From positions 24,616,001 through 24,680,000 of the forward strand of contig CM119371.1 of assembly GCA_051294905.1 (NCBI GenBank): a stretch of 64,000 nucleotides of DNA. The letters run 5' to 3'. Each line of letters starts with the position of its first letter. Position 1 is the stretch's first letter. The stretch is from Botryllus schlosseri (lineage: Eukaryota). Shown one piece after another: positions 7,787-53,453 of this stretch. Made by a program: the position numbers and the translations under genes. The notes under the pieces are model-generated. The model searched no databases. It saw only the letters and a program-made list of their open reading frames with translations, and was not told the origin of the DNA.

Positions 7787-10590
7787 GTGAGGTGTCTTGG
7801 AAACTGTAGGGCCCGTAACTAATAGTTAAACATTGCATGATGCACGTTGCATGATGTTATTTCGTGACCTCCTGTCTGCTATATCAACAAATATAGAATC
7901 GCCCAACAGGGATATCGCCCAACAAGAATATCTAGTTTTAGATATCCCTGTCGCCCAATCGTACTGAACTAAAAGACGAACACGATTTCAAATTGGTATT
8001 TCTTCACTGGCATATAATTTTTCCCTGCCGGATGGAATTCGTCTTCTGGGTTTCAGATTGCCAACACAGGAATATTCGGTGCCAGTCATTTAGGCGCCCA
8101 TGGACAATTAAACCTATATGTATTTTGTAGGCTATATATAACGAAGTTTTCGGTGTTCATTTTCTCTGAATACTCATTAAGGATATGTCCTGCCACCATA
8201 TCATCTACTGCGAAGCCATTTTTCTCCAGCGCCCCCATACTGCCCTCCTGAGCCCAGCGCCCCCCATATCGCCCACTGAGCGTTTCCGCCCCCTTTCAAA
8301 ATCGCCAGCGCCCCCTGGGGGCGCTGGAGGGAAGGTTAAGAACCACTGCCCTAATACAACGAATGCTTATTGGTCATTGAAGCTATATGCGTAGGCGAAT
8401 TTACTTGATCAAACCGGGTTAGATACACAAAAACTGAACAATGCAACAATTTAAATAGCCTAAGCCTACCCAAGAAGCCCTCAAGACGCGGGCAACAATA
8501 AAGTGGGCGAAAGCAAGCATTTCGGTGTTTAATTCAACCCCAAAGAGAATATGTCCTACACGACCTACAGTTAGACACAGCATAGAAGTTCTCCACTGCC
8601 CATACAGTCATTAGTACAGTGATTCGACTTGATTTTTTTTTAACAAAGATGGAGACTTGTTTGAATGTGCTGATTCGGCACAACTCCAATCCTTTTGAGA
8701 AATCCTTTTAACGTGATCTCTTGATTCGAACGTAACCTGAATATTACTGACACCAACTTTCAAACACCTCGCATCGTTCACACATTCCGCGCCGCTGTTT
8801 TCACACCTATAGAATCAATACCAACTAGCCCTTCAAGAATCAAGAATCACAAGTATGCACATTATACAGTTATTGTATTTATCAACTTGAAATCAAACTC
8901 TTAACAAAAACACGCATCTTATCACTTGCCAACTCTATCATGAAAATCCTCGAATCCATATTATTAGGAATGTTATAGTACGGCGTCGGAATCCACCCAA
9001 GAGATGTTCTGTAGGTAAAATGAGATCACCCAAAATGAAATATTTTGACTATGGTGTAGTGTGAATTGAAATAGGATTGACAAACATGACTACCAACTTT
9101 CACCCAGTCCCATTTCGATATTATACGCACATTGATTTGAAACAAGTAATGAAACATCGCAACTCTATTCGTGAATTGGCTTTACGTTTGCCAAAGAGAG
9201 TTTCGGAAATACTATCACTATGACATCAAAACATTTTAACATCTTGCCATACGCAAAAGAGTAAAATACAAAAACCTTGTCAAGTCAATCCGTTTGAAAC
9301 TTATTCAACCAACTCAATCAGTATACGTATGAAAAGTAGACAAGATTACGAGAGTACATGCAGCCACAACAACCTAAAATCCATAACAAGTTCGGTTTTA
9401 GTCATATACCGCCAACTCGTCTTTTTTATTCCACTGTAAAAGTCGTTACTATTCTGTAAGATAAAAGAATTACTACGCGGTATCTTCCTCAAAACAAAGT
9501 AATTACTACTAGATATATTTTTTAACCCAAAAGTACTTACTAATCGGTGCAGGCGACTTGAGATTAACATAATATGTTGGAGTAAACGAGATTTGAAAGT
9601 ATGACCAACGTAGTTGAGGATTTGTTTTTTTACAACCGAACGCTGGCGTTATATTGAAAGTTATCATGCTGTAAACACAAGGATTGAAACATTGATTTGA
9701 CGTATGAGATTTTGTAATGGTCGATCATGACTTGATTAATAAATTATTCACGTTAATTAGACCCGGTTTTGTGGTAAAGGTTATTATGACAGCAACAAAC
9801 TTTTCACTACCATGGCCATTAACATATTGAGTCGTAAAACTAGATTAGCGTGTCTGAAATGTTCTTGATTGGAAAATTACTCCACGTTGGTACAAATGAC
9901 TCTGCGTATCGCGGATATCAGAAAATATTTTACAAATGTAATTGTTTGCGGTAAACAAGACTAAAGATGAAACAACAATTTCGTTTGTTGATCAACAACC
10001 GGCGCAGTACTTTATTGTCAGAATCTGTGACAGCGAATTGAAACATGGACAAAGTACGAAAATATCACTTTGGAATTCGAGGGCATCATTTCAACCGTGT
10101 TAAACTATTGTTACACTCTCTGTCGAACGCGTGAAATGTAAAACATTACGAGGTCACACTCTAAGGGTGGGTTTCAAAAAGTTGTCTTAATTTAGACCTG
10201 GCTTAAGGCCAGTGAATGACTTGCCCAGGACGCCAGGCGTCGGCGGTCTTACTTCGGTTTCAAATGTCAATTTGGCGCCGCGCTCGGCCAAGTCCGTTAG
10301 TTGCGAGTAATTACTGTCTACTTCGTCGCTGTAGCGAGTTCAACACGGAACCGAGGCCAGATTTTTATTGTTTTGAGTTGCTCGCTGATGTCGTAAAGTA
10401 TGGTAGCGATGCAGTGAAGGAATATGGAATTGCTTGAGTTGTTGAAATTTACGGACGGATGATCAGAACGGAACCCCGAGGGAGTATCTGGCAAATGTTC
10501 AGCACGTTATCGCAAAGTATATGAAGAAATAGTGCGGGTGTTATTCCCATTTTTGAAGACACAACTTTCCAGCATTTTGGCATGTTAAAT

Positions 10591-10830
10591 GATGAAGATC
10601 ATGCTCTTGGAGATGCTGAATATCCACTGAGGACTTATTACTCACGCCACTATTATGCCCAAGAACTTTGACCGAAAAAAGTCACTATTGTTTTCGTACA
10701 TACTGTTACCCTCTGGCAGAGCGCAGTGCTTTGTGTTGAAGAAAATATCTCTCGCATTGGCTATATTCAAGGAAGAACCTCAGAATATCGATATGACAAT
10801 AGCCTGCCTCTGCGTTTACAATCATAGCAA
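10591..10830 (+). pseudogene. Harbinger (HARBI1-like) DDE nuclease C-terminal remnant
   Basis: Reads LGDAEYPLRTY then frameshifts to LTPL (family motif LGDSGYPL..LLTP), later IACLCVYN (family motif ACxxLHN). Frameshifted and internally deleted. Confidence 0.7.
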
Positions 10831-12283
10831 TGCTGACAAGGCAGATGGAGCTGAATTTGATCACATACTGCAACTGGAAGCGTTGACCGCACTCCCACAG
10901 TATCGACTCCTACATAGAAATCTGCACGACAACGCATGATCTAGAGATTTTTTCTAGCTAGCATTCTTGTTTGCAATACATTTGATTACATTCCAAAACA
11001 TACTCGTGCTTTATTTCTTGTGACACGTTAAATGAGGTAAAGTGTGCAATATGGCTTAAAGTAAGTTCAAGTTCATAAATTTGGACACAAGATAGCGAAG
11101 TTATGGCAAGGGGCTTGGAAAACCGGAGCAGGCGAACATGAACGGCTGAACAAAATTGAATCAAATGTACAAAAGACATGTTTTGACTCTAGATTCGGCT
11201 AGCGTCAAATTAATGTTGTCCAGCATCTTCTATAATTATTACGTCGAGACCCTGCTCAACTTGTTTCATTCTCTTCTGCTTTAGCACTGATTTTCAAATC
11301 TTCGCTGCTTCGTAGTTGACTTCGGGCCTGGACTTCGGTGAGCTGTTGGTAGAGATATAACTGATGAATTTCGGACGAATTTTTTAATTTTGATACTGTT
11401 GCTATCTATACAAAACTCAATAGTCTATTGTAATACATAGCATCAGCAAACTATACGAATGTTAATAGCAATAATAATGAGATAATAATTAATAGCAATA
11501 ATAATGAGATAACAAACAGATAATTGATGACCTGGTGATGAATGCAAATTTACCTTGATTTGGTTGGAAATGTTGTTGCCAAAACAACTAGCAGATGCAG
11601 CTCCCAACTGCTACTCCATAAGCTGGTAGATCAGATGGGTCAGCATCTATCACAAAACAACTTATCAAGCATGATATAAATATGAATGGAAATGACATAC
11701 TTACAGCCAGGTGTTGGTATCACGGTGTGAAGAACTGGATAAAGTTCGAGCAAAGTGCTTTCAGAAAAACCATGATATAAAAGGAACTGGATATTGGTAT
11801 GCGTAATTGCGCATTCACACTCACATATACAGATAGATAGATAGATAAATACCTATTTGATGGCTTGGCACATCACTGTTTGTTTGATTTTCTCTGTGTT
11901 CCAAAATAATGGTGCTATCGTTTGTTTCACAGCCTGCAACTCACTCTGGTGGCACATTGCACAGCTATATAATAATTTTTTACATTGACTTATTATGCTA
12001 CTATGTCGATACTATGACTGAATAGCAAATCTGTGAAAATCAATGTGGAATTGACATTTATCTCAAAAAAATTTGGATTACTGAAGCGTTAGCATGTACT
12101 GCACTTTGAATATTATTGGCATATATCACTTCACATCAATGGCCTTTTTAAGCTGCATACGTGCGCAAATGCGCAGTGCTGACACGGTCTATGCACACAG
12201 AAAATCTGAAGTAATGACCCTTTTTTTTAGGGGGTCTGGGGGCCGAGGGTATGCGTAGTGAGTTCTTGAGTGTACGCACAGAC

Positions 12284-13160
12284 TAGCGTTGGGACCCCGG
12301 GAAATCCCGATCCCGGGATCCCGGGATTTGAAGCAATCCCGATCCCGGGATTGGTCCCGATGAAATCCCGGGATTTGGGAACAGCATCTACCAAGGCTTA
12401 TGTAGCGCCATATCTCTTATTTTGGTAATAAAGCAGTGTCACAAACTCGGCTGATTGTCTAGAACAGTGGCCTCAAACACGCGCCCCGCTAGAACTGTTT
12501 TTGCGGCCCACGTCGGCGTTTTGACTTTTCAAGCATTCGACAATATTAAACTCGAAAATTTCAGATTTCGCATTTGAGACCTTGAAATTTCATTCTGAAA
12601 CCACTCCAAAAACCTGAATCGCTATCACACATCAAACGTCCACTAGCTGCTAAATTATAATGCGACAGCTTTTACGATGACACGATGCATTTGTCGTCTC
12701 GCATGGTTTCTAATTGTCTATATAACTTCTTATGTCGCCAAATTATGCCAAGCACAACAATATTTTTTTTAAATATTGAAAAATATTACTTTTTCGTGGC
12801 AACCGTGAATATTACAATAGTGTATTACATTTTCACAATGTGTATGGAATGCCAATCTGCAAGGTCCGACAAAAAAGGCGTACTGGGAAATACATATTAT
12901 ACCCCTTTCTGATGCTGCTGCTCGCCGCGTCATCAAAAACTACGAAATTGGCCCGCGAGCAAATTGGAGATTGGGACCCCTGATCTAAACGATGATACTC
13001 TTGATGCTCATATGTTTTGCGTCAATTCAATATCACAAGGACTAAATGTTATTTGTGTAACTTGAATGTGTATTTTACTACTTTTCTAATCACGGGGAAT
13101 CGCGGGATTGAGGAGCGAAAATCCCGGGATTTCAAATTTGATCCCGAAGTCCCAACCCTA
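12284..13160. mobile_element. hAT-type MITE with ATCCCG/CGGGAT arrays, nested in the Harbinger element
   Basis: TIRs TAGCGTTGGGAC / GTCCCAACCCTA. Perfect 8-bp TSD GCACAGAC at 12276-12283 and 13161-13168. Confidence 0.88.
12465..12982. mobile_element. Charlie/Buster-like hAT MITE nested in 12284-13160
   Basis: Ends CAGTGGCCTCAAAC..GCCCCGC / GCCCGCGAG..TTGGGACCCCTG. Degenerate TSD GTCTAGAA / ATCTAAAC. Confidence 0.6.
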
Positions 13161-14544
13161 GCACAGACTCGTCAAAAATTAGAGGGAACAGTGCTTCACA
13201 TCTATAGCGTCAAAAATAAGAGGGGACATTGCTTCACATCTATAGCAATTCCTTAACAAATTCATGCCTAGTCATGTAATTTTTCTTTCTGAAACTTCTG
13301 GATCTTTATCCACTATGCTGGAATTCGGTGCGCGTGCAGTGAACAGAATATCAATACAATGCTGGTTGAAAAACACATATTGATCGAAGTTCCATGTAGT
13401 CGGCACTATTCTAGAAAGTAGCGGTTAAACATATTCATGACAATGCTCATGGGGGTTGAGCAAAAATGGATATTTAGGGGAACCCTGAAATCAATCACAG
13501 TTGCGTGCAAGTGGTGCAACATTGATTAGGCTCAACGAAATGAGCATGATACATATTTTCCATGTTCTGGTGACGCGTCGTGTGTTCACTTTTTGGCCAT
13601 AACCACAGCAAAGGCAAACTGTCAAAACATCAACGTGCCTAAGTTAAAAGACGTAACCAGTCGAGAAAACTATAATGATGAGTTGACGTAGCACGTAGGC
13701 TATCAATAAAGGACCTGTTGATCTGCCGCAACCTAAAATCTCATCTTGGGGCTTCTTCGATACAAGCACAATATTACCTGATGTTCCCCATGACCATTGA
13801 TCAGCATCATTAGCCGTAGCGGATTCTTATCGCTGACCTTTCTTTGCCAAAATGGGCGGGATTCGCAAGTCCAACGCTGGGCACACCTTTACGCCTTACC
13901 CCAATTAGCACTTCCCGTGTCTCGTAACCATAGTCATATCATATTCGTAACCAAATTGAATGGAGTCAGAGGACGAGGGTTACGGGGGTCATGGGGAACA
14001 TTACTTGATACCATATGGTGCGGTTATGGGAGAAGTCCTGAGGTGTCCAGTGCTCAGGGCTCTGGCTATTCATTTTAAATGAGATCCGCTAAGTTATGAA
14101 GACCCCTGCAGAATTTCACTGTAAATCCCATCACGTAACGGTATATCATATCAGATTGTCACGTTCATGACAAGATGGATCATGTTATGTGATAAAATAT
14201 TGCTCCAAACTGACTGCCTGACAGCACTAAACAATAATATCATCTGATTTGACAAGCTGTTCATCAGAAAAATGGCCTACCTCCTCTAAAAAACAGCACA
14301 ACAGTTACCAGCACAGGACACTTCAGCCTACCCCCTACCAGGCTTGGATATCTGTCTTAACAAAGACCAAGCTGGGGAGGAAATCCCCGTAAGTCACAGT
14401 TTTGAAATTGACTTAGGGCTGAGGGGTGTAGCTTAAGCCCGACGACGGGATTAAGTTGACTATTTGAAACCCACCCTAAGACTTTCATCAGCACAAGAGC
14501 AATTTGGAATATCTTTACTGGATGCATCCTATTCAACAGTTCTT

Positions 14545-14728
14545 TGTATGGTTATGGCTCATACCGTCACGCATAACTTGTGTTCATGCTGACAAAGGAC
14601 TTTTGTGTCAACTCACTGGAGTTGAAGGTAGTGACAAGTGCAAGTTTCGGTTTAGTCTTTCCTTGCTTTATTTACAGCTTAATCATTTATTTGAGTATAA
14701 AACTCACTAATAAATGCATAATTGTACA
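14545..14728 (+). repeat. 5' LTR
   Basis: TGTATGGTTATGG...ATAATTGTACA, identical by eye to 19498-19681. Contains TATAAAA and AATAAA. Confidence 0.95.
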
Positions 14729-14759
14729 TGATTAAACTTCATACACCTGGATAACGGAT

Positions 14760-17700
14760 ATGCCTGTCGGTCAGTGCCCTCTTCCGAATTGCGGATTCCA
14801 GACTGCTGATACTGAAGCTGCCATCGCTGCTGCAGAGTTGAACATTCATGCTATGGTACACCAGACTGCCACACAACATAATGACAGTGTCGCACGTCAA
14901 AAACTTCCCAGCATGGAACGCCCTGTAGTCTCTCGAGATACGACTGCTGAGGATTGGCATGTATTCCTTCGCAAATGGGAATTATTTAAGGGGGGCACTA
15001 ATATGCCGGCAGATCAAATCATTAATCAGCTCTGGCAATGCTGCGAATCTGCGTTACAAACAGACCTTTTCAAACAAGTTGATGATGTGTCTCAGATAAG
15101 TGAGGACGAACTTCTGGCTACCATCAAGGCCTTGGCTGTTATGAATATAGCAGCAAGTGTTCGCAAGGCCAATCTATTCTGTTGTCGCCAGGATTGTGAT
15201 CAACCTATTCGGTCGTTTGCTGCTCAGGTCCACGGAATAGCTCGTACCTGCACATTTGCTATGAAGTGCACGCGACAAGACTGTGATCAGATAGTCAACT
15301 ATTCTGATGACATAGTCAAACATGTTGTGATATCAGGCATAGCAGATGAAGATATTCGGCGAGATATCCTCAGTTTACCTGACCTGGACGACAGGACTCT
15401 GCCAGAGACTATTAAAGTGATTGAAACCAAAGAAATGGCATCTCGTGCTATCTCTGTTAGTAGCCAGAGTTTCGGATCATTCGATAACACCGGAACTGTC
15501 GCGTCTAATGTGCCAAAAGCCCAAGATGCACCTCCATCGGCCAACCTTGATGTTATGATACCATGCCGTTCTTGTGGCAAGAAAATTAAAAAATTCAAGT
15601 ACATTAAGGGACGATTCGGGAAGAAATTCTTGAAAGAATTCGTGCAATGCTCAGAATGCTGGAAAACAGAGAGAAAAGTATCATCTGCATCTAGCCCGTC
15701 TGGACATATGGCATCTCTTTCAACACTTGACCGCCATAATGACCATGCATCGACAACGCGTAATGCTACTCCGCGTGGACATCAGTCGTCGTTCAAGCAC
15801 TACATCTTCGACGGAACAAAGGGGTGGTTAGCAAAGGAATCGAAACCGCAACCGACTGTGGAATTGCAGGTATGGACTGATACTCGTGATTATGATCAAT
15901 TCAATATCCCATGTCCACAAATGTCGTCTACGGCAGTAAAAGGTGTTGCTGACAGTGGTGCCCAATCGTCTTTGATGGGCCTAACAATGTTCTTAGCATG
16001 TGGGCTTACTAAGAACTGTCTATTACCCGTAACTAAACGTATGCTTGCTGCTAACGAAGAGGGCATAAATATTCTGGGTGCAGTATTCCTTCGAATGTCT
16101 GGTAAAATGCGCAACGGAGATCGCATAGCAACAGCCGAGATGGTTTATGTAACAGACTCGACTGATCTGTTCTACATGAGCAGAGGTGCGATGGAGCAAT
16201 TGCATATTATTGGGCCGGATTTCCCTACAGTTGGCGCTGCCGCAATTACTGCTCCGGTCTCTACGAAGGAATATTCAAACACCAATAGTAATCAACGCTC
16301 GTGTGAATGCCTTAAACGGTCGCTGCCTCCTAGTTCGCCCACTGAGCTCCCATTCACGCCATATGTGGAAAATAACGAAAAGATGAAACAATGGCTTCTA
16401 CTACGATTTAGTTCGTCAACATTCAACAAGTGCAAACATCAAACGTTGCCTTCCATCTCTGGAACACCCATATCCATTCATGTTGATCCAGATGCAAAGC
16501 CAGCAGCTGTCCACACACCTTCTCAAGTGCCTATTCACTGGCGTGATGCAGTTAAGAAACAATTGGATGATGATGTGCGTCTTGGTGTCATTGAAAAAGT
16601 TGAACCCAACACGCCGACAAAGTGGTGTCATCGAGCAATATGGGTTCGTAAAAGCGATGGAAGTCCTCGCAGGGTAATCGACTTCCAATCCCTCAATCGC
16701 CATTGCTCCCGGGACACGCACCACATCGTTCCACCATTTCATGAGGCCCGTTCCATCCCACCCGATACTTTCAGATCGGTTACTGACGCCTGGAATGGCT
16801 ACCATTCAGTACCCGTCAGAGAAGATGATCGCCACTTACTCACGTTCATCACTGAATTTGGCAGATACAGATATCGAGTGGCCCCACAAGGTTTCATAGC
16901 AAGCGGGGATGGATACACTCATCGGTATGATCGGATAATCGCTGATGTGCCTAGAAAGACAAAGTGCGTCGACGACACAGTGTTATGGGATGACAGTCTG
17001 TCTGAACATTGGTGGAGAATGATTCATCATCTCGAACTGATGGGACGAAATGGCATCATTCTTAATTCTTCGAAATTTCAGTTTGCATGTAAGCATATTG
17101 AGTTTGCAGGATTCGAGATTACGGCAGACGACGTACGTCCACTTCCAAAATATTTGGAATCCATCGCCTGTTTCCCAAGGCCACAGAAGCTGTCAGACAT
17201 ACGGTCGTGGTTTGGACTTGTGAACCAAGTCTCCCATTATGGCAAACTTACCGACATGATGGCACCATTCAGGAGCTTACTTAGCCCGAAATCTTCTTTC
17301 ACGTGGACCAATGAACTCGATGAGGCGTTTGCAGAGTCAAAAGCTGAGATTATTCGAGCAATCCAGAATGGGGTGCGCATTTTTGACCCGAAGCGAAAAA
17401 CTTGCTTGAATCCCGACTGGTCGAAATCGGGCATTGGGTACTGGCTGCGTCAAAAATACTGCGAGTGCGAATCTACGACGCCTGATTGCTGTCCCAATGG
17501 CTGGAAAATCACTCTGGCAGGTTCCCGATTCTTACGTGATTCTGAAAGACGATACGCTCCGATTGAAGGCGAAGACCTTGCTGTGGCATGGTCCCTGGAG
17601 GATACCAAGTTCTTTACCCTTGGCTGTGATGACCTTGTTATCGCTACCGATCACAAACTGCTGATCAAAATCTTCGGGGACAAATCGTTGGACGATATTA

Positions 17701-19427
17701 CAAACACTAGAATATTCCGCCTGAAGCAGCGTACAATGTCCTGGCGCTTTCGTATTTTTCATGTTCCAGGTTAATCCATACCGGCATCGGATGCGTTCTC
17801 GAGGCACCCCGCATCACTGGACACGACTCACTGGTCCTCCCTGGACCCAGTCGATTGTGTGGCGGCAGGTCACGATGAAAACAACCAACTAGAGACGTCT
17901 ATTATTGCAGCTACAAGGGCATCCCTGAACGCCATTAAAGTCATTTCATGGGAGGATGTGCGAACAGCTACCCTATGCGATGATACTCTCAGTAAGCTAA
18001 AGGAATACATCGTCTCAGGATTCTCACGTGGATCGGATCAGTTGCCGTTTAAGGTCCAAGCATATTGGCGCTATCGTGGTAAGCTTTCTATTGTTGATGA
18101 TGTTGTCATGTATGATGATCGAGTTGTTATACCTTCAATTCTGAGGAAAACAATATGTGACACCCTTCATTCTGCTCACCAAGGTATCAATACCATGTCA
18201 CAGAGAGCTCAAGCTACTGTTTTCTGGCCCGGTATGTCGGCTTGCATTGCAAGAACGCGGGCACAATGTGATGCGTGTAGCAGGTCCGCACCGAGCCAGC
18301 CGCATTTGCCCCCTTGTGATCCTTACGTACCAACATACCCCTTTCAGGCTATTGCCGCAGATTACTGCACTGTTGCAGGTCACCAGTATCTCGTAGCCAT
18401 CGATCGTTTCAGCAATTGGCCTGAAATCTTTCATATCAAGCCTGGCACTCAAACGTCTGGTGCACTTGGACTGCAAGATGCTTTACGGAACTACTTCATG
18501 ACATTCGGCGTTGTAGAGGAACTGAGCAGCGATGGCGGACCTGAATTCACCGCTCATAGTACGCAAGATTTCCTGCGTCGATGGGGTGTTCGGCACAGAC
18601 TGTCTTCAGCATACAATGCTCGGTCGAATGGCCGGGCTGAAATTGCGGTCAAGTCAATTAAACGACTTATCACTGGAAATATATCACAGGATGGTGAGCT
18701 CCGAACCGACTCATTTGTACGAGCCGTGTTACAGTTCAGAAACTGTCCTGATCCAGACAATGGCCTGTCTCCAGCTCAAATCGTTTTTGGAAGACCTTTG
18801 AAAGACGCTCTGCCATTCAAGAAAGTTGGTTCAGTCTTCAACGGACATATCGTAAGGCCGATGTGGACAAAGCTATGGCAAACAAGAGAACGTACATTAC
18901 GTACCAGGTTCGCTAAGCAGCTCGAATCTTTGCGACCACGCACTCATAATCTGGCACCCCTTGAAGTGGGGGACATATGTCGTGTACAAAATCAACATGG
19001 ACGTTTCCCTCTTCGATGGGACAAGACTGGTATGATTGTTCAGTGTAACGGCAATGACCAGTATCTTGTTAAGATTGATGGGTCCGGGAGATTGTCTTTG
19101 CGAAACAGAAAGTACCTTCGTAAAGTACAGCCATTCTGTCGATATACGGAAAAGCAGCATGGTACGGAAACTTTATCACCCGTGCCGACAACTGAGTCAC
19201 CGCATGTTGATGGTGCGAATCCCGAGCAGAGGATTCTTAATGACACACACGAGGAAAAACATTGCAACAACCAGCCTGTGGATGATGTTGACAATGCGTA
19301 CATGGATGATGACTCTCCTGGTACTTCACCATCAACCAGTGCTGATGGTGGCCGCAAGTCAAACCGTGTCAAAAATCCTCCACTTTGGCACAAAGACTAT
19401 GTCCTTGGCGCGTTGTATTCATATTGA
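14760..19427 (+). pseudogene. gag-pol polyprotein interrupted by one in-frame TAA at 17772-17774
   Basis: ORFs 14760-17774 and 17859-19427 share a frame. Protease ADSGAQ; RT DAWNGYH...PQG...CVDD; RNase H PDWS...RYAPIEGE...TDHK...HVPG*SIPASDAFSR; integrase LHSAH..CDAC, AADY, SDGGPEF, SNGRAE. Confidence 0.95.
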
Positions 19428-19482
19428 TGCATGTTTATTGTTGCGCCTTTTTCTTTTCAACTCCTCAAATTGTGCCTTTATC

Positions 19483-19497
19483 GGAGTTGTGGGGGGA
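19483..19497 (+). promoter_or_regulatory. Polypurine tract (plus-strand primer)
   Basis: GGAGTTGTGGGGGGA immediately upstream of the 3' LTR. Confidence 0.75.
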
Positions 19498-19681
19498 TGT
19501 ATGGTTATGGCTCATACCGTCACGCATAACTTGTGTTCATGCTGACAAAGGACTTTTGTGTCAACTCACTGGAGTTGAAGGTAGTGACAAGTGCAAGTTT
19601 CGGTTTAGTCTTTCCTTGCTTTATTTACAGCTTAATCATTTATTTGAGTATAAAACTCACTAATAAATGCATAATTGTACA
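19498..19681 (+). repeat. 3' LTR
   Basis: Identical by eye to 14545-14728. The ORF track gives the same peptide from both copies. Confidence 0.95.
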
Positions 19682-21675
19682 GTATTGGTTATTACCAAAC
19701 TCATAACATTAATAAAATCGAATTATGCGCTACACTGAAATCTACAAAAATATGTTCGTATTGTTGTTCATAGTAGTCATCATACATTATCCTTTTAATC
19801 TTCTAAAGTAATTTTATTCATGAAAACCAAACTACCGAAAGTCATTACCATCACAAAAACAATTTGTATGATATTCGTTAAGCGCATCCTAACTCAGTAT
19901 GCAGAAAATATTTGTAGAGTGCATAACGGCAAATAAATCAGGAACACAGCCAACAACGAAAATTATAAATCCGTTTCGTGTTACTATTGATACAAGTTCA
20001 TTTCTATCGGGCGAAATGAATGCCATCACAAAACTCAGAGCATGCAAAGGTCTTGATTGAAATGAATTTCGATTAGGGTCTTATGATACCAGCAAACATT
20101 TTAGAAATATTACGATTTGTCCGATTAATAGTTGATTGGAAACTTGTTCACGTACCTCAACCATTACATAAGAGTATAACACCACTACAATATCACACAC
20201 AGTACAAATGATGCTTATGTGTTATATGCTATTGATTTGAATCACACCAACCCGGAAGAGGATTTACTCACTCTTTACATAATTGATGTTAACCAACATC
20301 AAGTCATCGGTGTGCACTGTGCATCGTGTTTTCTAGATACGAATTATGTTGGTGTAGCAGAAAACAATTTAGTGTAATAGAAAACAATTTTCCCTCGGTC
20401 CGATTATGAAACTCTGTGTGAATTTTCAGTTAATAGATCGTTTTGCCAGAACATAATACATTTCGAAACCCATCCTACTGGAATGGCCGAGCTTGCCATA
20501 TCAAACTTTCATCTGTAAATCAAGAGTACGAACAGTCTTATCTGTTGCTATATATTTACCAATTCGAGTTGTAATCGAAATTCGATATCGTAAACATTTA
20601 CCGATTGGGGAACGTGGCGATTAATACACATCCATTACCGAAAAATCGTGTCGATTTCTACCATTACGATAATCGAAACACATTGAATCGAATTAGTCAC
20701 AAACTCTTTTCGTACGCTACATATCGCTGATACCGATGTTGGTACTATATTGAGGAATATTATGTTAGCCATCTTCGATTTTCAACCTAATAAAACTAGT
20801 TACTTTGTAGGGAAACGAATGAATATCCCTACAAACAAACACCAAGGTAAGGAAGATGTTTACACAACACCAAACATTCGACTTCATTCGATACTTTCAT
20901 ACTACGAAACTGTAGAATGATGGTGTAGACTTTCAAACTAAAGAGTGTTTGGGTATAGTCTACAATCCGATTTGATATCACAAGAGTAGTTTTACGCGAA
21001 TGGTGACGTAACCAGATATTCAAATAATCCAACACAGAACTATAGTACTTACATAAATACCAAAGTTCTTGTAATAAAGTTGTATGTGCACAATGTTTAT
21101 CATAAGTCCTACATATTAATATCCGTCCGAGTTTGGCTTTCAGAAAACATATAACAGGCGTCGCGAAATCTTTCAAAAACAAAAACACGGTCACCTATCA
21201 ATGTCATCACAGTAATCGAGTTACTTCCACAAAAGAGAGATGTGATTTCTAGTCACGACTCTCAAATCTTAAAAACAAAACAATTTACTTTGTAAACGAA
21301 AAGTGCTGAGTCATCATATGGTTGTCCTCTAAACAAAGAGTAGATGAAGCCGTATCAAAATGTTCCAAACCCTTTGCACGCCGGTGAAAAATTATACAAT
21401 GGATATGTTTTGTGAATCGAATTGTTGTTCAGCGTCAGGTATCCACATTGCTACATACATTAAAATAGTGCAATTCAATTAAAACCACGAATCTATTTTC
21501 ATTTTGTCACACACTGTCGCGACAAATCAACTCAACACACAACAACCTTCTTGCAGTCGTAATAACATTTTCATTCTCTCCTCTTCGTAATAGTATACTC
21601 ACGACAAGTATATCGTGCAACACGACAACAACGTTTTACAAGACCAATGTCACTGGTAACACTGAACACACGCCG

Positions 21676-21900
21676 CTTACCCTAGTAACAATATCGTGAG
21701 CAACAATACATTTTCACGTGGCGGTCCGCCGTTTACCTGAGTAAAAATATCATTTTCCTTTGGAGATCTGGCGTTTACCCAGAGTAACAATACATTTTCC
21801 CTTGGAAATCTGTCATTTACCTGAGTAACAACACCATTTTCGCTTGGAGATGCGGTGTTTACCTGATAAAAATACCATTTTCGTTTTGAAATCTGACAAC
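21676..21900. repeat. ~41-42 bp degenerate tandem array in the left arm (about 5 units)
   Basis: Unit resembles TTTACCTGAGTAACAATACATTTTCCCTTGGAAATCTGTCA. The minus strand translates as 14-aa repeats QVNTASPSENGVVT / QVNDRFPRENVLLL / WVNARSPKENDIFT. Confidence 0.75.
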
Positions 21901-24459
21901 CACACCCAGCAATTTGGTAATTGTTGTATTGATGACCGTTGGAGATTACTTGCAACGGACAGTGACAAATTATACACCAACAACGACTCCGATACATTTC
22001 TGTAATAACATATTCACTTGGTCTGGGGCATCCCATCAAAATCAGCGGCTACCCACATGCAATAACAGTGTCCTGATGTACATCGACATGTATGTTTTCG
22101 GAATTGGTGAATAAAGTGGTTTTCGATATGTCTGTGATATCTGGGCTCGTGCTTTGGATTTTACAGAGTCAAAATGTCTGAATAAAACACCCCCTCGACT
22201 TGGGCACCTGGTTGGTTCGTGGATAACGGTGTTCGGAAAATGGCTGAATTTATGTTCCCCATCGCGCTAACATTTCCGGGTTGAGTTTTCTCACGCATGT
22301 TTACTATATTATGTCTTTATTGGTCAATGTATGTCGCTTCATTCAGTGTGAAATCGGAAATCCTGAGAAAGTATGTAACCGGATCTGGATATTCATTCAT
22401 GACCCAACGACCAATATTCAAGTAAACATGTTACACCCTGTGTTTCCACGAAAAAATACCAATGCACCATCCACATATACGTCGCGATTGTTTGCCCACA
22501 CAAGTAGTCGCGTAAATGGGGGGTCTATCACATTGCATGCATTGTGTTGGTATAGAAACATCGGGGAATAAGCTTTCGATGCGCAGACATTATCATAGCC
22601 GGTAATTTTGATGCAGATCGAATGTCATCAAGCACACCCGACAACAGTGTCATACCAATAAGACACATTACAATGACTCTGAGTATACGCTATTACATCG
22701 ATATTTCGACACCGTTCACTGATTTATTCGACGGTTTTATCGCGTTGTAACATCACAGGATAGTCATGACCCTATCTCCGGATAGACCACCCAGACAGTG
22801 TGTAGTAAATTGGATACATCGGTCAATATCTATCGTGTTGTCGACACCCTGCACAGTTCTCTGCTGAGACTACAGCGTTTGACAAAAGTGAACTATCGAA
22901 GTACGGGTGCTCGAAATGATTGCGAAAACGATGAGTCTTTCACTACGTCACGATGAATGGATGTCGCAACTCCAACATAACGACTCCAGATAAATATCGC
23001 GAAAAATGATTCTGCAAATCTCGGACTGATACTGTGATCCAATAAGGTGTGTTTCTGTGGAATGAAGACTGCAATCGTACACCACAATAGAACACAACCT
23101 CGTGTTTTCATATGCAATCATAAAACGCATCTTCGTATGGGTTTGTCCAGTTCGTCCGGTGACATTTCGAAACGAAAATCGCCACAAGAGATCGCGGTTG
23201 CTCTCAGTTTGTCATATTGGTAGCATTTTGAAACGGTCATCACCACAAGGTTATTGATCGAAGTCGGTTTCAGTGGGTCTTGTCAATCCGTTTCACAATC
23301 CACCGTTTTTCAATTCCCTTCACCATAGTGTTACGACACAGAAAAGATGCGACGGTGGCACACGGAATGCACACTTTGGTGTTATTTGACATGGATTTTA
23401 TACCCGATGAACCTTACATTCGAGCGATCCTTTGGAATGACGCTTGTATTATTGACGTCGAAGGGAAAGAAATGTATCGATTTATCGGTTTCGTACATAT
23501 CCAACAAAAAACTAGGTTTATGATTGTGCACGGTTCACATATTTGACTGTGAACGCTCTATTGGTATATGCTGTACAGTTCGCTTTCCCCATCGATGGTA
23601 GTCGTGTGAATAACCATGTTACGGTTCTATGTTTGTGTGTCTGTATGTCCGTTACATGCTTCTTATTGAATTTACTCAATCGAGAGATGCAATGTGTCTT
23701 ATTGGTATGACATTGTTATCGGATGTGCTTGATGACATTCGATCTGCATCAAAATTTCTGGCTATGATAATGTCTGCGGATCAAAAACTTATTCCCCGAT
23801 GTTTCTATACCGATACAATGCATGCAATGTCATACACCCCCCATTTACGCGACTACTTGTGTGGGCAAACAATCGCGACGTATGTGTGGATGGTGCATTG
23901 GTATTTTTTCGTGGAAACACAGGGTGTAACATGTTTACTTGAATATTCGTCGTTGGGTCATGAATGAATATGCGGATCCGGTTACATACTTTATCAGGAT
24001 TTCAGATTTCAAACTGAATGTAGTGACATACATTGACCCATAAAGACACAATATGGTAAACCTGCGTGAAAAAACTCAACCCGGAATTGTTAGCGCGATG
24101 GGGAACATAAACTCAGCCATTTCTTGAACGCCGTTATCCACGAATCAACCAGGTGCCAAAGTCGAGGGGATGTTTTATTCAGACATTTTGACTCTGAAAA
24201 ATCCAAAGCACGAGCCCAGACATCACAGACATATCGAAAACCACTTTTTTCACCAATTCCGAAAACATACATGTCGATGTACAACAGCAGATTGTTATTG
24301 CATGTGGGTAGCCGATGAATTTGATGAGATGCGCCAGAACAAGTGAATATGTGATTACACAAATGTATCGGAGTCGTTGTTGGCGTATACTTTGTCACTG
24401 TCCGTTGCAATCAATCTCCAACTGTCATCAATACTACAATTACCAAATTGCTGGGTGTG

Positions 24460-24755
24460 GTTGTCAGATTTCAAAACGAAAATGGTATTTTTATCAGGCA
24501 AACACCGCATCTCCAAGTGAAAATGGTGTTGTTACACAGGTAAATGACAGATTTCCAAAGGAAAATGTATTGTTACCCAGGTAAACGCCAGATCTCCAAA
24601 GGAAAATGATATTTTTACTCAGTTAAACGGCGGACCGCCACGTGAATATATATTGTTGCTCGGGGAAAAGATAAATTTCCTAGTGAAAACGGTATTGTTA
24701 CTCTAGGAAAAAAATGTATTTCAAAACGAAAACGGTATTGTTACTAGGGTAATCG
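24460..24755. repeat. Mirror copy of the 42-bp array in the right arm, about 2 units longer
   Basis: Reverse complement of 21676-21900 plus ~80 extra bp at ~24661-24740 containing GAAAACGGTATTGTTACT twice. Confidence 0.75.
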
Positions 24756-27337
24756 GCGTGTGTTCAGTGTTATCAGTGACATTGGTCTTGTAAAACGTGG
24801 TTGTCGTGTTGCACAATATACTTGTCGTATACTATTACGAAGAGGAGAGAATGAAAATGTTATTACGACTGCAAGAAGGTTGTTTTATGTTGAGTTGATT
24901 TGTCGCGGCAGTGTGTGACTAAATGAAAATAGATTCGTGGTTTTAATTGAATTGCACTATTTTAATGTATGTATCAATGTGGATACTTGACGCTGAACAA
25001 CAATTCGATTCACAAAACATATTCATTGTACAATTTCTCACCGGCGTGCAAAGGGTTAGGAACATTTTGATGCGGCTTCATCTACTCTTTGTTTAGAGGA
25101 CAACCATATGATGACTCAGCACTTTTCGTTTACAAAGTAGATTGTTTTGTTTGTAAGATTTGAGAGTCGTGACTAGAAATCACATCTCTCTTTTGTGGAA
25201 GTAACTCGATAACTGTGATGACATTGATAGGTGACCGTGTTTTAGTTTTTGAAAGATTTCGCGACGCCTGTATAATGTTTTCTAAAAGTCAAACTCGGAC
25301 GGATATGAATGTGTGGGACTTACGATAAACATTGTGCACCTAGAAGTTTAATACAAGAACTATGGTATTTCTGTAAGTACTATAATTTTGTGTTGGATTA
25401 TTTGAATATCTGGTTACGTCACCATTCGTGTAAAAATACTCTTGTGATTTCAAATCGGTTTGTAGACTATAACCAAACACTCTTTAGTTTGAAAGTCCAC
25501 ACCATCATTCTACAGTTTCGTAGTATTGGAATATCGAATGAAGTCGAATGTTTCGCGTTGTGTAAACATCTTTCGTACCTTGGTGTTTGTTTGTAGGGAT
25601 ATTCATTCGTTTTCTAAAAAGTAACTAGTTTTGATAATTTGAAAATCGAAGATGGTTAACATAATTTTCCTCAATACAGTACCAACATCGGTATCACCGA
25701 TGTGTAGCGTACGAAAAGAGTTTGTGACTAATTTGATTCAATGTGTTTCGATTATCGTAATGGTAGAAATTGACACGATGTTTCGGTAATGGATGTGTAT
25801 TATTCGCCACGTTGCCCAATCGGTGAATGGTTACGATATTGAATTTTGGTTTCAACTCGAATTGGCTAATATACAGCAACAGATAAGACTGTTCGTACTC
25901 TTGATATACAGATGAAAGTTTGATATGGCAAGCTCGACCATTCCAGTAGGATGGGTTTCGAAATATAATATGTTCTGGCAAAACGATCTATTAACTGAAA
26001 ATTCACACAGAGTTTCATAATCGGACCGAGGGAAAATTGTTTTCTATTACATTAAATTATTTTCTGCTACACTAACATAATTCGTATCTAGAAAACACCA
26101 TACACACCAATGACGTGATGCTTGTTAACATCAATTATGTAAAGAGTGAGTAAATCCTGTTCCAGGTTGGTGTGATTCAAATCAATAACATGTAACACAT
26201 AAGCATCATTTGTACTGTTTGTGATATTGTGGTGGTGTTAAACTCTTATGTAATGGGTGAGGTACGTGAACAAGTTTCCAATCAACTATTAATCGGAGGT
26301 ACGACTTCGGATTTACAAATCGTCGTATTTCTAAAATGCTTGCTGGTATCATAAGACCCAAATCGAAATTCATTTCAATCGATACCTTTGCATGCAATGA
26401 GTTTTGTGGTGGCATTTATTTCACCCGATAGAAATGAACTGGTATCAATTATAACGGGAAACGCATTTATCATTTTCGGTGTTGGTTGTGTTCCTGATTT
26501 CTTTGCCGGTATGCACTCTAGAAATATTTTCTTCCTTCTGAGTTAGGATGCGCTTAACGAATATCATACAAATTTTTTTGTGATGGTAATGACTTTCAGT
26601 AGTTTGGTTTTTATGATTACAATTACTTTAGAAGATTCAAATGATAATGTATGATCACTACTATGAACAACAATACAAACATATTTTTGTAGATTTCAGT
26701 GTAGCGCATAATTCGATTTTGTTGATGTTATGAGTTTTGTATTAACCAAGACCGGTTGAATAGGATGCATCCAGTAAAGACATTCCAAATTGCTCGTGTG
26801 CTGATCAAAGTGTTGGAGTGTGACCTCGTAATGTTTCACATTTCACGCGTTCGGCAAAGGGTGTAAAAATAGTTCAACACGGTTGAAATGATGCCCCCGA
26901 ATTCCAAAGTGATATTTTCGTACTGTGCCAATGTTTCAATTCGCAGTCACAGATTCTGACAATAAAGTACTGCGCCGGTTGTTAATCAACAAACGAAATT
27001 GTTTTTCTATCTTTAGTCTTGGTTACCGGAAACAATTACATTTGTAAAATATTTTCTGATATCCACGATACGTAGAGTGATTTGTACCAACGTGGAGTAA
27101 TTTTCCAATCAAGAACCTTTCAGACACGCTTGTCTAGTTTTAAAAATCAATATGTTAATAACCATGGTAGTGAAAAGTTTGTTGCTCTCATAATAACCTT
27201 TACCACAACCCCGGGTCTAATTAACGTGAAAAATATAATAATCAAGTCATGACTCATGATCGACCATTACAAAATCTCATATGTCAAATCAATGTGTCAA
27301 TCCTTGTGTTTACAGCATTATACCTTTCAATATAAAG

Positions 27338-28894
27338 TAGGGTTGCCATACGTCCAGAATTTCCCGGACATGTCCGGAATTTCACTGTTCGAACTAGCGT
27401 CCGGGAGGAATTTCTAAAATATGCCAAATGTCCGGAATTTTGAAGACTTGACGTAGGCTCATATTTTTTTCGTAAATTAACATAAAAACATTAATTTGGG
27501 GAATATTTATGCCGATGCATGATGTTTTTTTCGCGCTGCGCGCGATTTATCATCTCATTTATTGATTTTAATTTGGGGACTACCAACTTCGCAGGAAGTG
27601 CTGTAAAATATCAATAAAAACAACCTTCATTTACTGGAATTAGTCTAATTGTAATCGCAATTATAGGAGAACGGTATATTCCTAGAGATCGTTAAGGCCG
27701 TTTAAATGCTTAATTCAATGATATATAGTGATCCAAACGTGGCGGTCGTTTGCCTTTATTCTGGGGTTCGCGAATATGTTGAACGTAATCAGCTTCCAAA
27801 ATAGCCCGTGAGTAAGTCCGGCAACGGTGCTGACTTCTTTTAGTAATCAGCTCGTCAAATTTTGATCCAGGCCACGGAACATTTTCAAATTGGAGATGGA
27901 GTCGTGACCATAAAAGGTTGAAAACCACTGGATGTGGGGTGTTTATAACGCTCAATGGTGCGCACCGGCATAAAGTTGATAAACAATCTTATCGGTGGGA
28001 CATGAACATGACTTAACGATGTACAATTACGCTCCCTGTATTTTCGAACGCATTATCCTTCACCAGCTCGGTACCGCTAACTCTGATCATGTGGGCGGAG
28101 AGTAGTAACTATAGTAACTATATAGTAATATATCGAACAAACATGAGTGAATTCATTCAAAAAATTTAACGACCAGATGCATATAGACACCACATTCATA
28201 TAGCAGCCCCCCCCCCCCCCCCATTGATTACTCTATGGTAGGGATACCAAACGTCCTCTTTGACGAGGATTTGTCCTCTTTTTGACTTTTTTGAAAACGT
28301 CCTCCGAGGACGCCCTTTTTTCTTCTTTTTTTGAGATTTTGTTTTCTTTTTTGAGAATTTTGGTAAAATTTACGGCGAAAATGGACTGAGATGTCGTAAA
28401 TCAGCACTGAAGTTACGCTCAAGCGGGTATTTCGGGAGCTGAGTGGGAGATGACCTTTTTTCTTTTCTTTTTTAGTCAATCACCCGACAATGTGAATGGA
28501 AAAACTGTATTCTGGTCGCCAAACGAGAAAGTTGGACTTTTTTCTAGTCAACCGACCACGAAGTGTAAAAAATTTACCGTTAATTCAGGATTTTCAACCG
28601 GTTTTGCATGTCTGAAAATTCTGAAAAAGTGTCTTATTTCACATTTCCCAAATATGGTAACCCTACCTATGGTGGGCTCAAAATCATTGCTTATTTGGGT
28701 GGGAAGGGGCTGAAAATGTGGTTTCTATCCCGGTTACACAACACACAGCCACATACATACTCCTGAACCGGATCGTGACCACCTCTGGTCTATGAGCAAA
28801 GCTTTGCTAGTGTGACGTCATAACTCATTTTGAAATCCTCTAGTGGGCGCCAAAGAGTGTCCGGAATTTGTGTCACAGAAATATGGTAACCCTA
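27338..28894. mobile_element. hAT-type non-autonomous element inserted in the right arm
   Basis: TIRs TAGGGTTGCCATA / TATGGTAACCCTA. Perfect 8-bp TSD ATATAAAG at 27330-27337 and 28895-28902. Absent from the left arm near 9650. Confidence 0.92.
28239..28665. mobile_element. MITE nested in 27338-28894, same family as 29688-30120
   Basis: TIRs TAGGGATACCAAA / TATGGTAACCCTA with GTCCTCTTTT arrays. CTATGG is duplicated at the flanks. Absent from the sibling copy at 43754-44592. Confidence 0.85.
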
Positions 28895-29687
28895 ATATAA
28901 AGCCATCGTTCGGTTGTAAGAAACGAATTCTTAACTACGTTAGTCATACTTTCAAATATCGTATACTCAAACATATTATGTTAATATCAAGTCGCCTGCA
29001 CCGAGTAGTAAGCGCTTTTGTCTTAAAAAATACATCTAGTAGTAATTACTTTGTCTTGCAGAATATACCGCGTAGTAATTCCTTTCTCTTACAGAATAGT
29101 AACGACTTTTACAGTGGAATAAAAAAGACGAGTTGGCGGTATATGACTACAACCAAACTTATTATGAATTTTAGGTTGTAGTGGTTGCATGTTCTCGCAA
29201 TCTTGTCTACTTTTCACACGGATACTGTTTGAGTTGGTTGGGTAAGTTGCAAACGGATTGACTTGACAAGGTTTTTGTATTTTACTGTTTTGCGTATGGC
29301 AAGATATTAAAATGTTGAGATGTCATAGTGATAGTACTTCTGAAACTCTCTTTGACAAACGTAAAGCCAATTCACGAATAGACTTTGCGATGTTTCATTA
29401 CTTGTTTCAAATCAATGTGCGTATAATATCGAAATGTGACTGGGTGAAAGTTGGTAGTCATGTTTGTCAATCCTATTTCAATTCACACTACACCAAAGTC
29501 AAACTATTTCATTTTGGTTGATCTCAATTTACCTATAGAACATCTCGCGAGTGGATTCCGACGCCGTACTATAACATTCCTAATAATATGGATTCGAGGA
29601 TTTTCATGATAGAGTTGGCGAGTGATAAGATGCGTGTTTTTGTTAAGAGTTTGATTTCAAGTTGATATATGCAATCACCGTATAATG

Positions 29688-30120
29688 TAGGGTTACCATA
29701 CGTCCTCTTTTCAGAGGATTTGTCCTCTTTTTTGACTTATTTGAAAGTGTCCTAGGAGGACGCCCTTTTGTCCTCTTTTTTGAGATTTTGTCCTCTTTTT
29801 GAAAATTTAGTTCAGATTTAGACGAAATTGCGACTGATAAATTAAATTAGCACAGAAGTGACGCTCCGGCGGGTATTTTGGAGTGAAAAACGAAGAATTT
29901 AGCTATGAGCGAACAATTACCTTTTTTTTAGTCATCCACCTAGCAATACGGAAAGAAAAACGGTATTTTGAGCTCTGAGCGGACAGATGACTTTTTTATT
30001 TTTAGTCAACCGGTCGCAAAGACGGAAAAATTCACCGGTTTTTGAGAATACTATTCCGGTTTTGCAAGGCTCGAATTTCTGAGTGTGCTCTTTTTAGATT
30101 TCCAAAATATGGTAAGCCTA
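29688..30120. mobile_element. hAT-type MITE in the right arm
   Basis: TIRs TAGGGTTACCATA / TATGGTAAGCCTA. Perfect 8-bp TSD GTATAATG at 29680-29687 and 30121-30128. The empty site is in the left arm near 8860. Confidence 0.93.
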
Positions 30121-31109
30121 GTATAATGTGCATACTTGTGATTCTTGATTCTTGCATAGCTAGTTGATATTGATTCTATAGGTGTGAAAACAGCGGCGCG
30201 GAATGTGTGAGTGATCCGACGTGTTTGAAAGATGGTGTCAGTAATATTCAGGTTACGTTCGAATCAAGAGATCGCGTTAAAAGGATTAGAGTTGTGTCGA
30301 ATCAACACATTCAAATACGAATAAACTTGATTTGTGTTGTAAGTTTCATTTCAAGTTGACAAATTGACACATTGCTTGAATATTCTCATGATTCGTATCA
30401 CGCAACTAAAGTCAACCCCTATTCCGGAGGCGTGGAAACATATAGCGATCGCCGGAAAGTGTCAAATTGTTGGTTTTCGAACCACGGTCTGCGACGGTTC
30501 TGTGACAAACTAATTACCAAAATATTACCTTGAGAATGGTTCCTACCTCTGTAACACGAAACCACAGAAGATAGCTATGTCTGAGGTGTTATCCTGTGAG
30601 CGATGGTAGGATTTTACAAATATTTCACACATTTTTGAAGTGTTAGTTTGTGAGCGCGGCTATGGTTAGTATTCGAATCGCCATCTACGCCGGCTCTGTG
30701 GTAAACTAATTACCAAATATTACCTTGCAAGTGATTCCTAGATTTAGCAAACTATTTCACACCTTTTTGCTGAAATTACTACATCCCGCCGCAGCCTATA
30801 CCCGAAAGGGTGGCATCACCAGACATCTCATATACATGACAGGCGAATCAACGGAGCACCCATAAGAATAACGATATATTGATTTCTCACTCACCCTAAA
30901 CATTGGGATTAATTCGAATCGGTCACTTATAATAATTTGGAATATACACATTAAGAAACGATCAATCACGTGACTACTTACCAGAGGTGGTCAGTGACGA
31001 ATTACTTCTAATTTTTGAAGTACTTGAAGTAGATTTTCCCTACTCAAACTACTTTTTAAGTAGGTATGATTTTAGACTACTTCTACGTTTTATTTACTAC
31101 ATCCTAGAA

Positions 31110-52340: not shown

Positions 52341-53075
52341 TTATTTTTTGCAGCGGCCACAGAACCATTTGTTTTGTTTCGGGGAAGTGTTTAGTCCAGC
52401 ACATAGGAGATGATCCCGGTTGAGACAGGAGTCACAACGAATTGAATTGCTCTTTGTAAGTTGAAGGTCGCATACTCCACAGTACCAGTCCTTCTGACTA
52501 TATTTACTTTGGAATGCCTTCATCACAGCAGCCCATCCATCATATGCGAAGTAATTCTTGATGGGGAGTATATTCACAGTCTCATCAAGGCAGCTGTTGG
52601 GGATGAGGCGAGTGTCAGACGTGACAGACTTACTGCCCAATTTCTTCCCATACACTGCTTCATTAGTGTCCGATGGTGATACAAACCATGACAGCATCAC
52701 TGTGAATGAGGCAGAAGTGAAATTTGCTGAGGTTCTGCATGAAATAAACTTACATCGGTCTCTGTCTTTAGGATGTCTTTTTTTAAATGGAACTGGAGCG
52801 TCACATTTCTTCTTCTTCGAAAGGCCAACCACAGTTTGTTCCAAGCCTTTTGGGCGTCCTCTTTTTTTCAGTTTTGATGGCAGATGAATGTTGGAAAGAT
52901 CTGAAACAGCAAGATCAGTTTTATTATAGTGTAGCAAGATAAAGTTTGGATTAATTTGACACCAACCCGTGAACTTGTCTGGTGTCATGGTGATTTTGCT
53001 ACAGACTACGGACACTGCTGGGGTGCTATTTTCTGCATCACAGACTTCAGACACTGCTATAGCGCAATTGACCAA
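52341..53075 (-). pseudogene. C-terminal exons of the MULE transposase gene: AT-hook/NLS plus PHD finger
   Basis: KKRGRPKG motif and a C4HC3 PHD (CGVC..CDSC..HLLC..WFCGRC) then stop. Two short in-frame phase-1 GT-AG introns predicted at 52966-52901 (66 nt) and 52753-52700 (54 nt). Confidence 0.8.
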
Positions 53076-53453
53076 CCAATTTGAAATCGTGTGCGTCTTC
53101 TAGTTTAGTACGTATGGGCGATTTGAATATCTTTTGACATAGCAGGCAGGCCACGAAATGTCATTACGTAAATAAGTCATTATACCCACGGGTCCGCCCG
53201 AATATGTTCAATTATTATTTACGGGCCCTACATTTTCCAAGACACCTCACTCAGCTTTACCGGTAAATCTGAATACATGAGCAGAGAGAGGATAAAAAAT
53301 TGACAGCAATATTTATGCAATTCTCAATCATATTGACCGATTCAATCATGAATAGTAGAAATTCGAAGGCGACCTGCAATAAATTCAAATAATATAACGG
53401 TGATTATGCATTAGTTGTCATTTATTGATTCAATAGTGATAATCGCATATTAC

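Follow-up and report, generated by a model that had tools for sequence, protein, structure and literature searches.

A high-copy, non-coding family of giant palindromic mobile elements with Maverick/Polinton-like ends in Botryllus schlosseri

The DNA analyzed here, referred to as the window, is a stretch of 64,000 nucleotides of the Botryllus schlosseri genome (GenBank assembly GCA_051294905.1, contig CM119371.1, positions 24,616,001 to 24,680,000 of the forward strand); coordinates given without a contig prefix are positions in the window. From 8660 to about 30990 it contains a giant palindrome, consisting of two long inverted arms around a central spacer and interrupted by four other mobile elements. 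The structure is one old copy, no longer able to move, of a non-coding mobile-element family with a high copy number. The window copy itself is an ordinary, dead fossil, and the family to which it belongs is the actual finding.

Organization of the window palindrome

A repeat search displays the inverted repeat as 11 colinear inverted pairs of 167–894 nt each, at 90–95% identity and all within 8701–30287, which merge by blastn into five blocks around a 1,015-bp spacer. From the outside inwards, the inverted blocks pair 8701–8867 with 30287–30121 (94.0% identity), 8859–9655 with 29688–28894 (92.2%), 9649–10164 with 27335–26813 (91.4%), 19685–21697 with 26749–24732 (92.0%), and 21698–22672 with 24661–23688 (93.2%). 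Chance origin is excluded because of the length and identity of the repeat. An earlier note on this DNA, made from the sequence alone, had proposed a palindrome hidden by later insertions, and the five blocks (91.4–94.0%) bear this out, although the arms are about 92% identical rather than the ~90% that it gave.

The left arm, read rightwards, survives in three parts: an outer part at 8660–10164, which pairs with 30287–26813; a 68-bp piece at 14477–14544, lying between two of the insertions and aligning to its right-arm mirror at 26750–26812; and an inner part at 19682–22672, found by both repeat search and blastn, with a 42/84-bp tandem array at 21698–21895. The spacer (22673–23687, forward strand) is a conserved, non-palindromic family core without a coding frame, recognized by its genome matches and the inverted arms that flank it. 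The right arm, on the reverse strand, includes an inner and middle part at 23688–27337, with the mirror tandem array at 24465–24752, a further middle part at 28895–29687, which is the right half of the second block, and an outer part at 30121–30990, of which 30121–30287 pairs with the left arm.

Neither end of the window copy is complete. The right end had been placed at 30315, but family homology runs on to ~30,985–30,990; the sequence from 30288 onwards is family subterminal sequence whose left counterpart has not survived, and the arm ends ~200–490 bp before the family terminus. The left arm is cut at 8657–8660, ~890 bp inside the terminus (position 8657 corresponds to position 891 from the terminus in copy L050). 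The missing outer parts of the arms were not found anywhere else in the window, and a genome search with the terminal 18-mer pattern gave no family terminus within the span of the window, which agrees with truncation of both ends. With ~8% arm divergence, both termini lost and four nested insertions, the copy can no longer move because its ends are gone.

The boundaries of the four insertions, as given in the earlier note, are exact to the base. The first, in the left arm, is a non-autonomous PIF/Harbinger-type insertion (10165–14476) with GGGTGGGTTTCAAA-type terminal inverted repeats (TIRs) and a TAA target-site duplication (TSD; 10162–10164 and 14477–14479), both read directly; it has no transposase frame, and none of its eight frames of at least 70 amino acids matches Pfam. 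It is followed by a Gypsy-order long terminal repeat (LTR) retrotransposon (14545–19681, forward strand) with 184-bp LTRs (14545–14728 and 19498–19681) that are 100% identical, and with RVT_1, RT_RNaseH, Integrase_H2C2 and rve domains in that order. The right arm carries a non-autonomous hAT-type insertion at 27338–28894 and a second of the same family at 29688–30120, both with TAGGGTT ends and perfect 8-bp TSDs (ATATAAAG and GTATAATG, respectively).

The 5-mers flanking the Gypsy-order element are unlike, TTCTT (14540–14544) and GTATT (19682–19686), and each is one base off the mirror sequence GTCTT of the other arm. Such mismatched flanks are odd for so young an insertion, and could stem from local mutation or from two elements having recombined. 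The look-alikes of its polyprotein fall in animal clusters, which is weak evidence for an animal host, and the apple and pear repeat HODOR, described as a 9.2–9.7-kb LTR-type element (PMC6901071, PMC13334179, PMC8558331, PMC10984392, PMC6445120), was accordingly dropped as a relative.

Dispersal, copy number and size of the family

Segments of the arms and spacer match loci across many contigs of the 495.5-Mb assembly, almost all of them arranged in inverted pairs separated by a few kb, and twenty stretches taken from family loci are colinear with the window copy across both arms and the spacer. The spacer, previously described as unique, is conserved across the family: it has 41 scored genome matches at 81–86% identity (of 862 first-look candidates) and lies between inverted arms at all 11 loci examined. 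The terminal 18-mer pattern has 1,463 matches in the genome, versus 108 for a reversed control, and we estimate ~1,350 family ends, or ~680 element-equivalents, occupying in the order of 9 Mb and in the order of 2% of the genome. The earlier note had advised a genome search for other copies with the same termini and TSDs, and the finding of these ~680 element-equivalents supports a mobile family. The family has amplified recently.

The 21 mapped elements range from 9.5 to 22.9 kb, with 12 of them between 13.2 and 13.85 kb; four elements with family termini are 18–23 kb long (C3:21977423–22000338, C8:22158842–22177984, C9:18233425–18251579 and C10:9266571–9285477). Intact members are ~13.6 kb, with two inverted arms of ~6.3 kb and a conserved spacer of ~1 kb, such that the TIRs constitute ~93% of the element. 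The earlier figures of a ~10.2-kb element with 4.6-kb arms are thus apt for the truncated window copy and not for intact members. Within the arms there are tandem sub-repeats, comprising the 42/84-bp arrays and subterminal motifs; the rest is mostly complex unique sequence.

The whole palindrome is the transposing unit, since the TSD flanks the palindrome in its entirety and the same asymmetric spacer and colinear arms recur in every copy examined. The same observations lend no support to one of the origins earlier considered, in which a ~5-kb unit had dimerized head to head at the locus.

Some individual loci have further features. At C6:19123001–19138500 (L042/L043) there are two truncated palindromes in tandem with a 7,409-bp period, 100% identical over 3,755 bp, so a family copy was duplicated locally only very recently. 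At C2:29455001–29475000 (L033/L034) two family elements are adjacent, the right terminus of the first abutting subterminal sequence of the second, and one appears to have inserted into the other. The C10:12.44 Mb copy carries an unrelated repeat within its left arm (L048, 599–1976), and this repeat recurs at 94.6% identity beside the C6:18.79 Mb copy (L015, 1–370), 26 bp beyond the terminus.

Termini and target-site duplication

When the outward flanks of several copies are aligned, the family terminus is seen to start with AGTAGT, with unrelated DNA outside. AGTAGT is present at both ends of all mapped elements, and the arms, as inverted repeats, reach the termini; about 30 inverted pairs on C1 have the same terminal variant at both ends.

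The sequence immediately outside the termini shows a target preference, and the terminal motif is preceded by TCGTG (with at most one mismatch) at 227 ends, versus one for the reversed control. With ACGTG fixed outside the terminus there are 48 ends, which include seven inverted pairs, all with CACGTG at both ends; among the unpaired ACGTG ends, a C precedes in only 5 of 34. Fourteen of these 34 xACGTG ends, where x is the free base, have a partner among 27 CACGTx' ends, inverted and 9.5–23 kb off, and in all 14 pairs the two free bases are exact complements, with no non-complementary pairs. A 6-bp direct repeat therefore flanks 21 of 21 paired elements (the seven CACGTG pairs and the 14 pairs of complementary xACGTG and CACGTx' ends), with the patterns that define the pairs fixing five of the six bases and each pair contributing one free test position. 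The 4-, 5-, 7- and 8-mers beside the termini are not reverse complements, so only the 6-base register fits and the TSD is 6 bp. Duplication of a 6-bp CACGTG-like target predicts both the bias towards CACGTG and the partnering of xACGTG with CACGTx' ends. Copy L050, with flanks GTCCTG and ATCCTG, follows the 6-bp rule at five of six positions.

Relationships between the arms

Self-alignments show that the arms within most copies are 98.5–99.9% identical over 1.5–6.2 kb, and between copies identity is 77–93% over their length. In a 770-bp inner-arm segment compared among the 16 copies with both arms, the nearest relative of every one of the 32 arms is its own partner, at 92.8–100% identity versus 87.3–99.4% to the best arm of another copy. 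Because partner arms are closest in all 16 copies, the arms were made identical at or after each insertion.

Two processes could account for this, namely identity at birth followed by decay, and conversion between arms that are already in place. It is possible, if somewhat doubtful, that near-identity is kept only after insertion, by gene conversion as in chromosomal palindromes and unrelated to the copying of the element. Divergence along the arms is uneven in three copies (P about 1e-7, 9e-5 and 1e-7): the arms of the C7:17.67 Mb copy have one difference in 2,102 bp of one part and 18 in 1,179 bp of another, with like contrasts in the copies at C7:11.41 Mb and C10:12.44 Mb. Patchy conversion after insertion accounts for this better than would a pure clock starting from identity at birth. 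Three copies whose arms are identical, moreover, had no equally close sibling in a genome-wide comparison. This missing-parent result is suggestive only, as the identities count gaps in tandem arrays and the parents may lie on unassembled haplotypes, and its weight in favor of conversion is reduced accordingly. A reading by conversion only has also to contend with the graded nature of arm identity, which descends from 100% to 92% with the window copy as the most diverged; that copy is uniformly divergent (91–94% identity in all five blocks) and has the most nested insertions, as expected from decay since birth. A young cluster of sibling copies at 99.1–99.4% likewise speaks against it. We think that decay since birth and arm-to-arm conversion after insertion both act.

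Coding capacity and expression

The family is non-coding, without polymerase, integrase, capsid, protease or ATPase genes. In a young copy with 99.93% identity between its arms, the longest stop-to-stop frame of a 6.5-kb arm is 95 amino acids. None of 51 frames of at least 50 amino acids, covering arm, spacer and terminus, matches Pfam (best E 0.013), and nor does any of 14 frames of at least 140 amino acids, drawn from 22 such frames in all family loci examined; a search of family sequence against Rfam likewise found nothing. In two RNA-seq runs there are almost no reads over the arms or spacer, and only the edges of the nested LTR and hAT elements are covered. A 10.6-kb segment in the spacer of the C7:16.05 Mb copy was considered as an autonomous version and rejected, as it has no frame longer than 147 amino acids.

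Other features of the window

Outside the palindrome, a reverse-strand open frame of 252 amino acids (52341–53099) has a weak PHD-finger match (E 1.7e-4, under the Pfam cutoff) and may be a host exon. The region at 56–58 kb has raised GC content (0.48) and strong GC skew (0.27). The segment 6063–6413 is a 95–96% match to DNA beside another family copy (L010, 3910–4359), reflecting an unrelated young repeat near both loci.

Affinity to Maverick/Polinton elements

We favor, with moderate confidence, the interpretation that the family is a non-autonomous, giant-TIR derivative of a Maverick/Polinton-type element that retains cis-acting signals only, because its end motif and 6-bp TSD together are the published Maverick/Polinton signature. 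Vertebrate Mavericks are described as having perfect 6-bp TSDs and conserved 5'-AG..CT-3' ends, commonly (AGT)2//(ACT)2, and the intact ones as being 12.7–24.6 kb long with TIRs of 46–1,447 bp (PMC8097293). The family has the same TSD length, the same 5'-(AGT)2...(ACT)2-3' ends and long TIRs; its first six bases are exactly the commonest Maverick end motif, and its size mode of ~13.6 kb falls inside the range of intact vertebrate elements. The very-long-TIR mobile element, foldback-type or virus-derived, that the earlier note listed among its candidates is therefore the one that stands, as a multi-copy family with common termini and 6-bp TSDs whose end motif and TSD length match those of Mavericks.

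Several observations weigh against this assignment, in addition to the uneven arm divergence and the single free position per TSD pair. The definition of a Polinton includes genes for a protein-primed DNA polymerase B and an rve integrase (PMC5499653), and the family encodes nothing; a family without genes can be at most a non-autonomous derivative, with its membership placed on cis features only, a 6-nt motif and the length of the TSD. Its TIRs, at ~6.3 kb, are four times the longest of intact vertebrate elements (1,447 bp) and three times those of butterfly polintons, which are given as ~2 kb. The polymerase B profile PF03175 has no matches in the genome (nine candidates scored), a weak negative in that the control genomes are silent too, and the A32-type ATPase profile PF04665 has a single weak genome match (30.5 bits) at C11:4516071–4516424, outside every mapped element. 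Two inverted pairs, C2:18908046/18921772 and C4:12050113/12078323, have the same outside 5-mer at both ends (TCGTG and TCGTA, respectively), which is a misfit to a simple 6-bp TSD, possibly because the inverted repeat reaches beyond the termini at these loci. The family also differs in its ~680 copies. Polinton TIRs had earlier been noted to be far shorter than 4.6 kb, and this agrees with the literature, without ruling out a derivative of Maverick type.

The ATPase match lies in an open frame of 188 amino acids, ~17 kb from the family copy at C11:4486185–4499380, and possibly represents what is left of a Maverick or polinton-like virus. Neither of the two commonest terminal 18-mers occurs in viral contigs. 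Nine metagenome contigs have one terminal 18-mer, the only one scanned there, and were set aside as chance matches with nothing further in common with the family. In the portion of the literature on non-autonomous or defective Polintons and Mavericks that was covered, no non-coding giant-TIR family was found described; curated repeat libraries lie outside this search.

The family itself, its termini, TSD length, target preference, lack of genes and arm kinship are direct observations, and from there we infer the helper enzymes, the mode of replication and the route of arm homogenization of a Maverick-type derivative as follows. The 6-bp staggered cut would be the work of an rve-type integrase acting in trans. 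The repeats at Maverick ends are thought to serve jumping-back in protein-primed replication (PMC8097293), and a helper's protein-primed polymerase could replicate the element from its (AGT)2 ends, (AGT)2 being the kind of origin suited to jumping-back. During strand-displacement copying of such a near-complete palindrome, the displaced strand could form a hairpin (6.3-kb stem, 1-kb loop) in which either arm might act as template for its partner or correct it; the arms would then be identical at birth and drift apart afterwards. Their identity is probably increased further by gene conversion between the arms once the element has inserted.

Alternative interpretations

An alternative that we consider unlikely, although it deserves weighing, is that the family is a non-autonomous foldback-type element of some other, possibly undescribed, DNA-transposon superfamily with 6-bp TSDs, and that the AGTAGT end is coincidental. 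The silence of the polymerase profile and the single weak ATPase match are in keeping with this, and ~680 copies are more typical of cut-and-paste non-autonomous elements. Integrase-like cut-and-paste families also provide precedents for both the target and the duplication: Ginger elements target short palindromes (CCGG for Ginger1 and RTATAY for Ginger2), and IS3EU/GingerRoot elements make 6-bp TSDs. The termini do not follow, however, as none of the superfamilies checked joins a 6-bp TSD with AG...CT ends. IS3EU/GingerRoot elements are described with TA..TA termini, Ginger elements with TGTNR termini and TSDs of either 4–5 bp or 6 bp at the AT-rich RTATAY (the target of the family being CACGTG-like), and LTR elements with TG..CA; the TIRs of the IS3EU/GingerRoot and Ginger groups are, in addition, only tens to hundreds of bp. 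A coincidence would also have to account for the identity of the first six bases with the commonest Maverick end motif and for a modal size within the Maverick range.

A more specific proposal, which we regard as improbable, is that the family is a genome-resident satellite of a Maverick-type virus: a gene-less, capsid-sized palindrome with (AGT)2 ends only, which a helper, rare in the host genome or absent from it, replicates by protein priming, perhaps packages, and integrates. If it were correct, each replication cycle would regenerate the perfectly matched 6.3-kb arms via a hairpin or panhandle intermediate, and the family would correspond, in integrated form, to the defective palindromic genomes of adenovirus-like viruses. 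This would account for the narrow size mode, the identity of arms at birth and the missing autonomous partner.

A single inversion-duplication event in host DNA here, as the earlier note had also entertained, or an assembly artefact, which it had thought unlikely in view of the arm-specific insertions, has practically no chance of being correct: nothing favors either except the palindromic shape, the first is refuted because copies sharing this architecture, these termini and the TSDs are dispersed in their hundreds, and the second is excluded by window arms that are ~8% different and have their own insertions with intact TSDs, which artefactual duplication would not yield, with two public DNA runs covering 30 of 30 bins of 19600–27400, as contigs of ~130–350 nt that are too short to span the palindrome.

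Significance of the family

Mavericks and Polintons are usually discussed as large, gene-rich and low-copy elements, and a wholly non-coding derivative would be an unusual route by which the lineage persists. The combination seen here is itself unusual, with hundreds of copies making up in the order of 2% of the genome, 93% of the element being inverted repeat, and no evident autonomous partner. The family further constitutes a natural experiment on the identity of long inverted repeats, as a single genome here holds hundreds of 6-kb arm pairs, independent and of graded age, and each copy can be dated by its own arm divergence in the manner of LTR pairs. Near-perfect 13.6-kb palindromes are also hazards for assembly and annotation, and are candidate sources of hairpin RNA and candidate fragile sites.

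Comparison with other known systems

An LTR retrotransposon, or a large non-autonomous LTR derivative, was rejected, as the repeats of the family are inverted with AG..CT ends rather than direct with TG..CA ends. Tyrosine-recombinase elements such as DIRS and Crypton are not known to make a TSD, and were rejected on account of the 6-bp TSD of the family.

The overall plan resembles that of foldback (FB-type) elements such as Drosophila FB and Tetris, in which two long inverted arms flanking a short middle likewise make up nearly the whole element; these too are non-coding and have tandem sub-repeats inside the arms. Drosophila FB has arms of tandem short sub-repeats and a 9-bp TSD, whereas the arms of the present family are mostly complex unique sequence with local arrays only, and its elements have AGTAGT ends and a 6-bp TSD.

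Viruses with adenovirus-type protein-primed replication give rise to palindromic defective or symmetric-recombinant linear genomes with inverted terminal origins, which depend on a helper. Transpovirons are described as lacking capsid genes and having inverted-repeat ends (PMC5499653). Linear DNA, inverted terminal origins and helper dependence are the points of likeness to these systems; they are episomal or particle-borne and mostly coding, in contrast to the family, which is integrated with TSDs and wholly non-coding, with no free form observed. Taken together, this is a high-copy, non-coding, giant-TIR family with no visible helper and with the cis hallmarks of Mavericks and Polintons, and as such an unusual variant of known elements.

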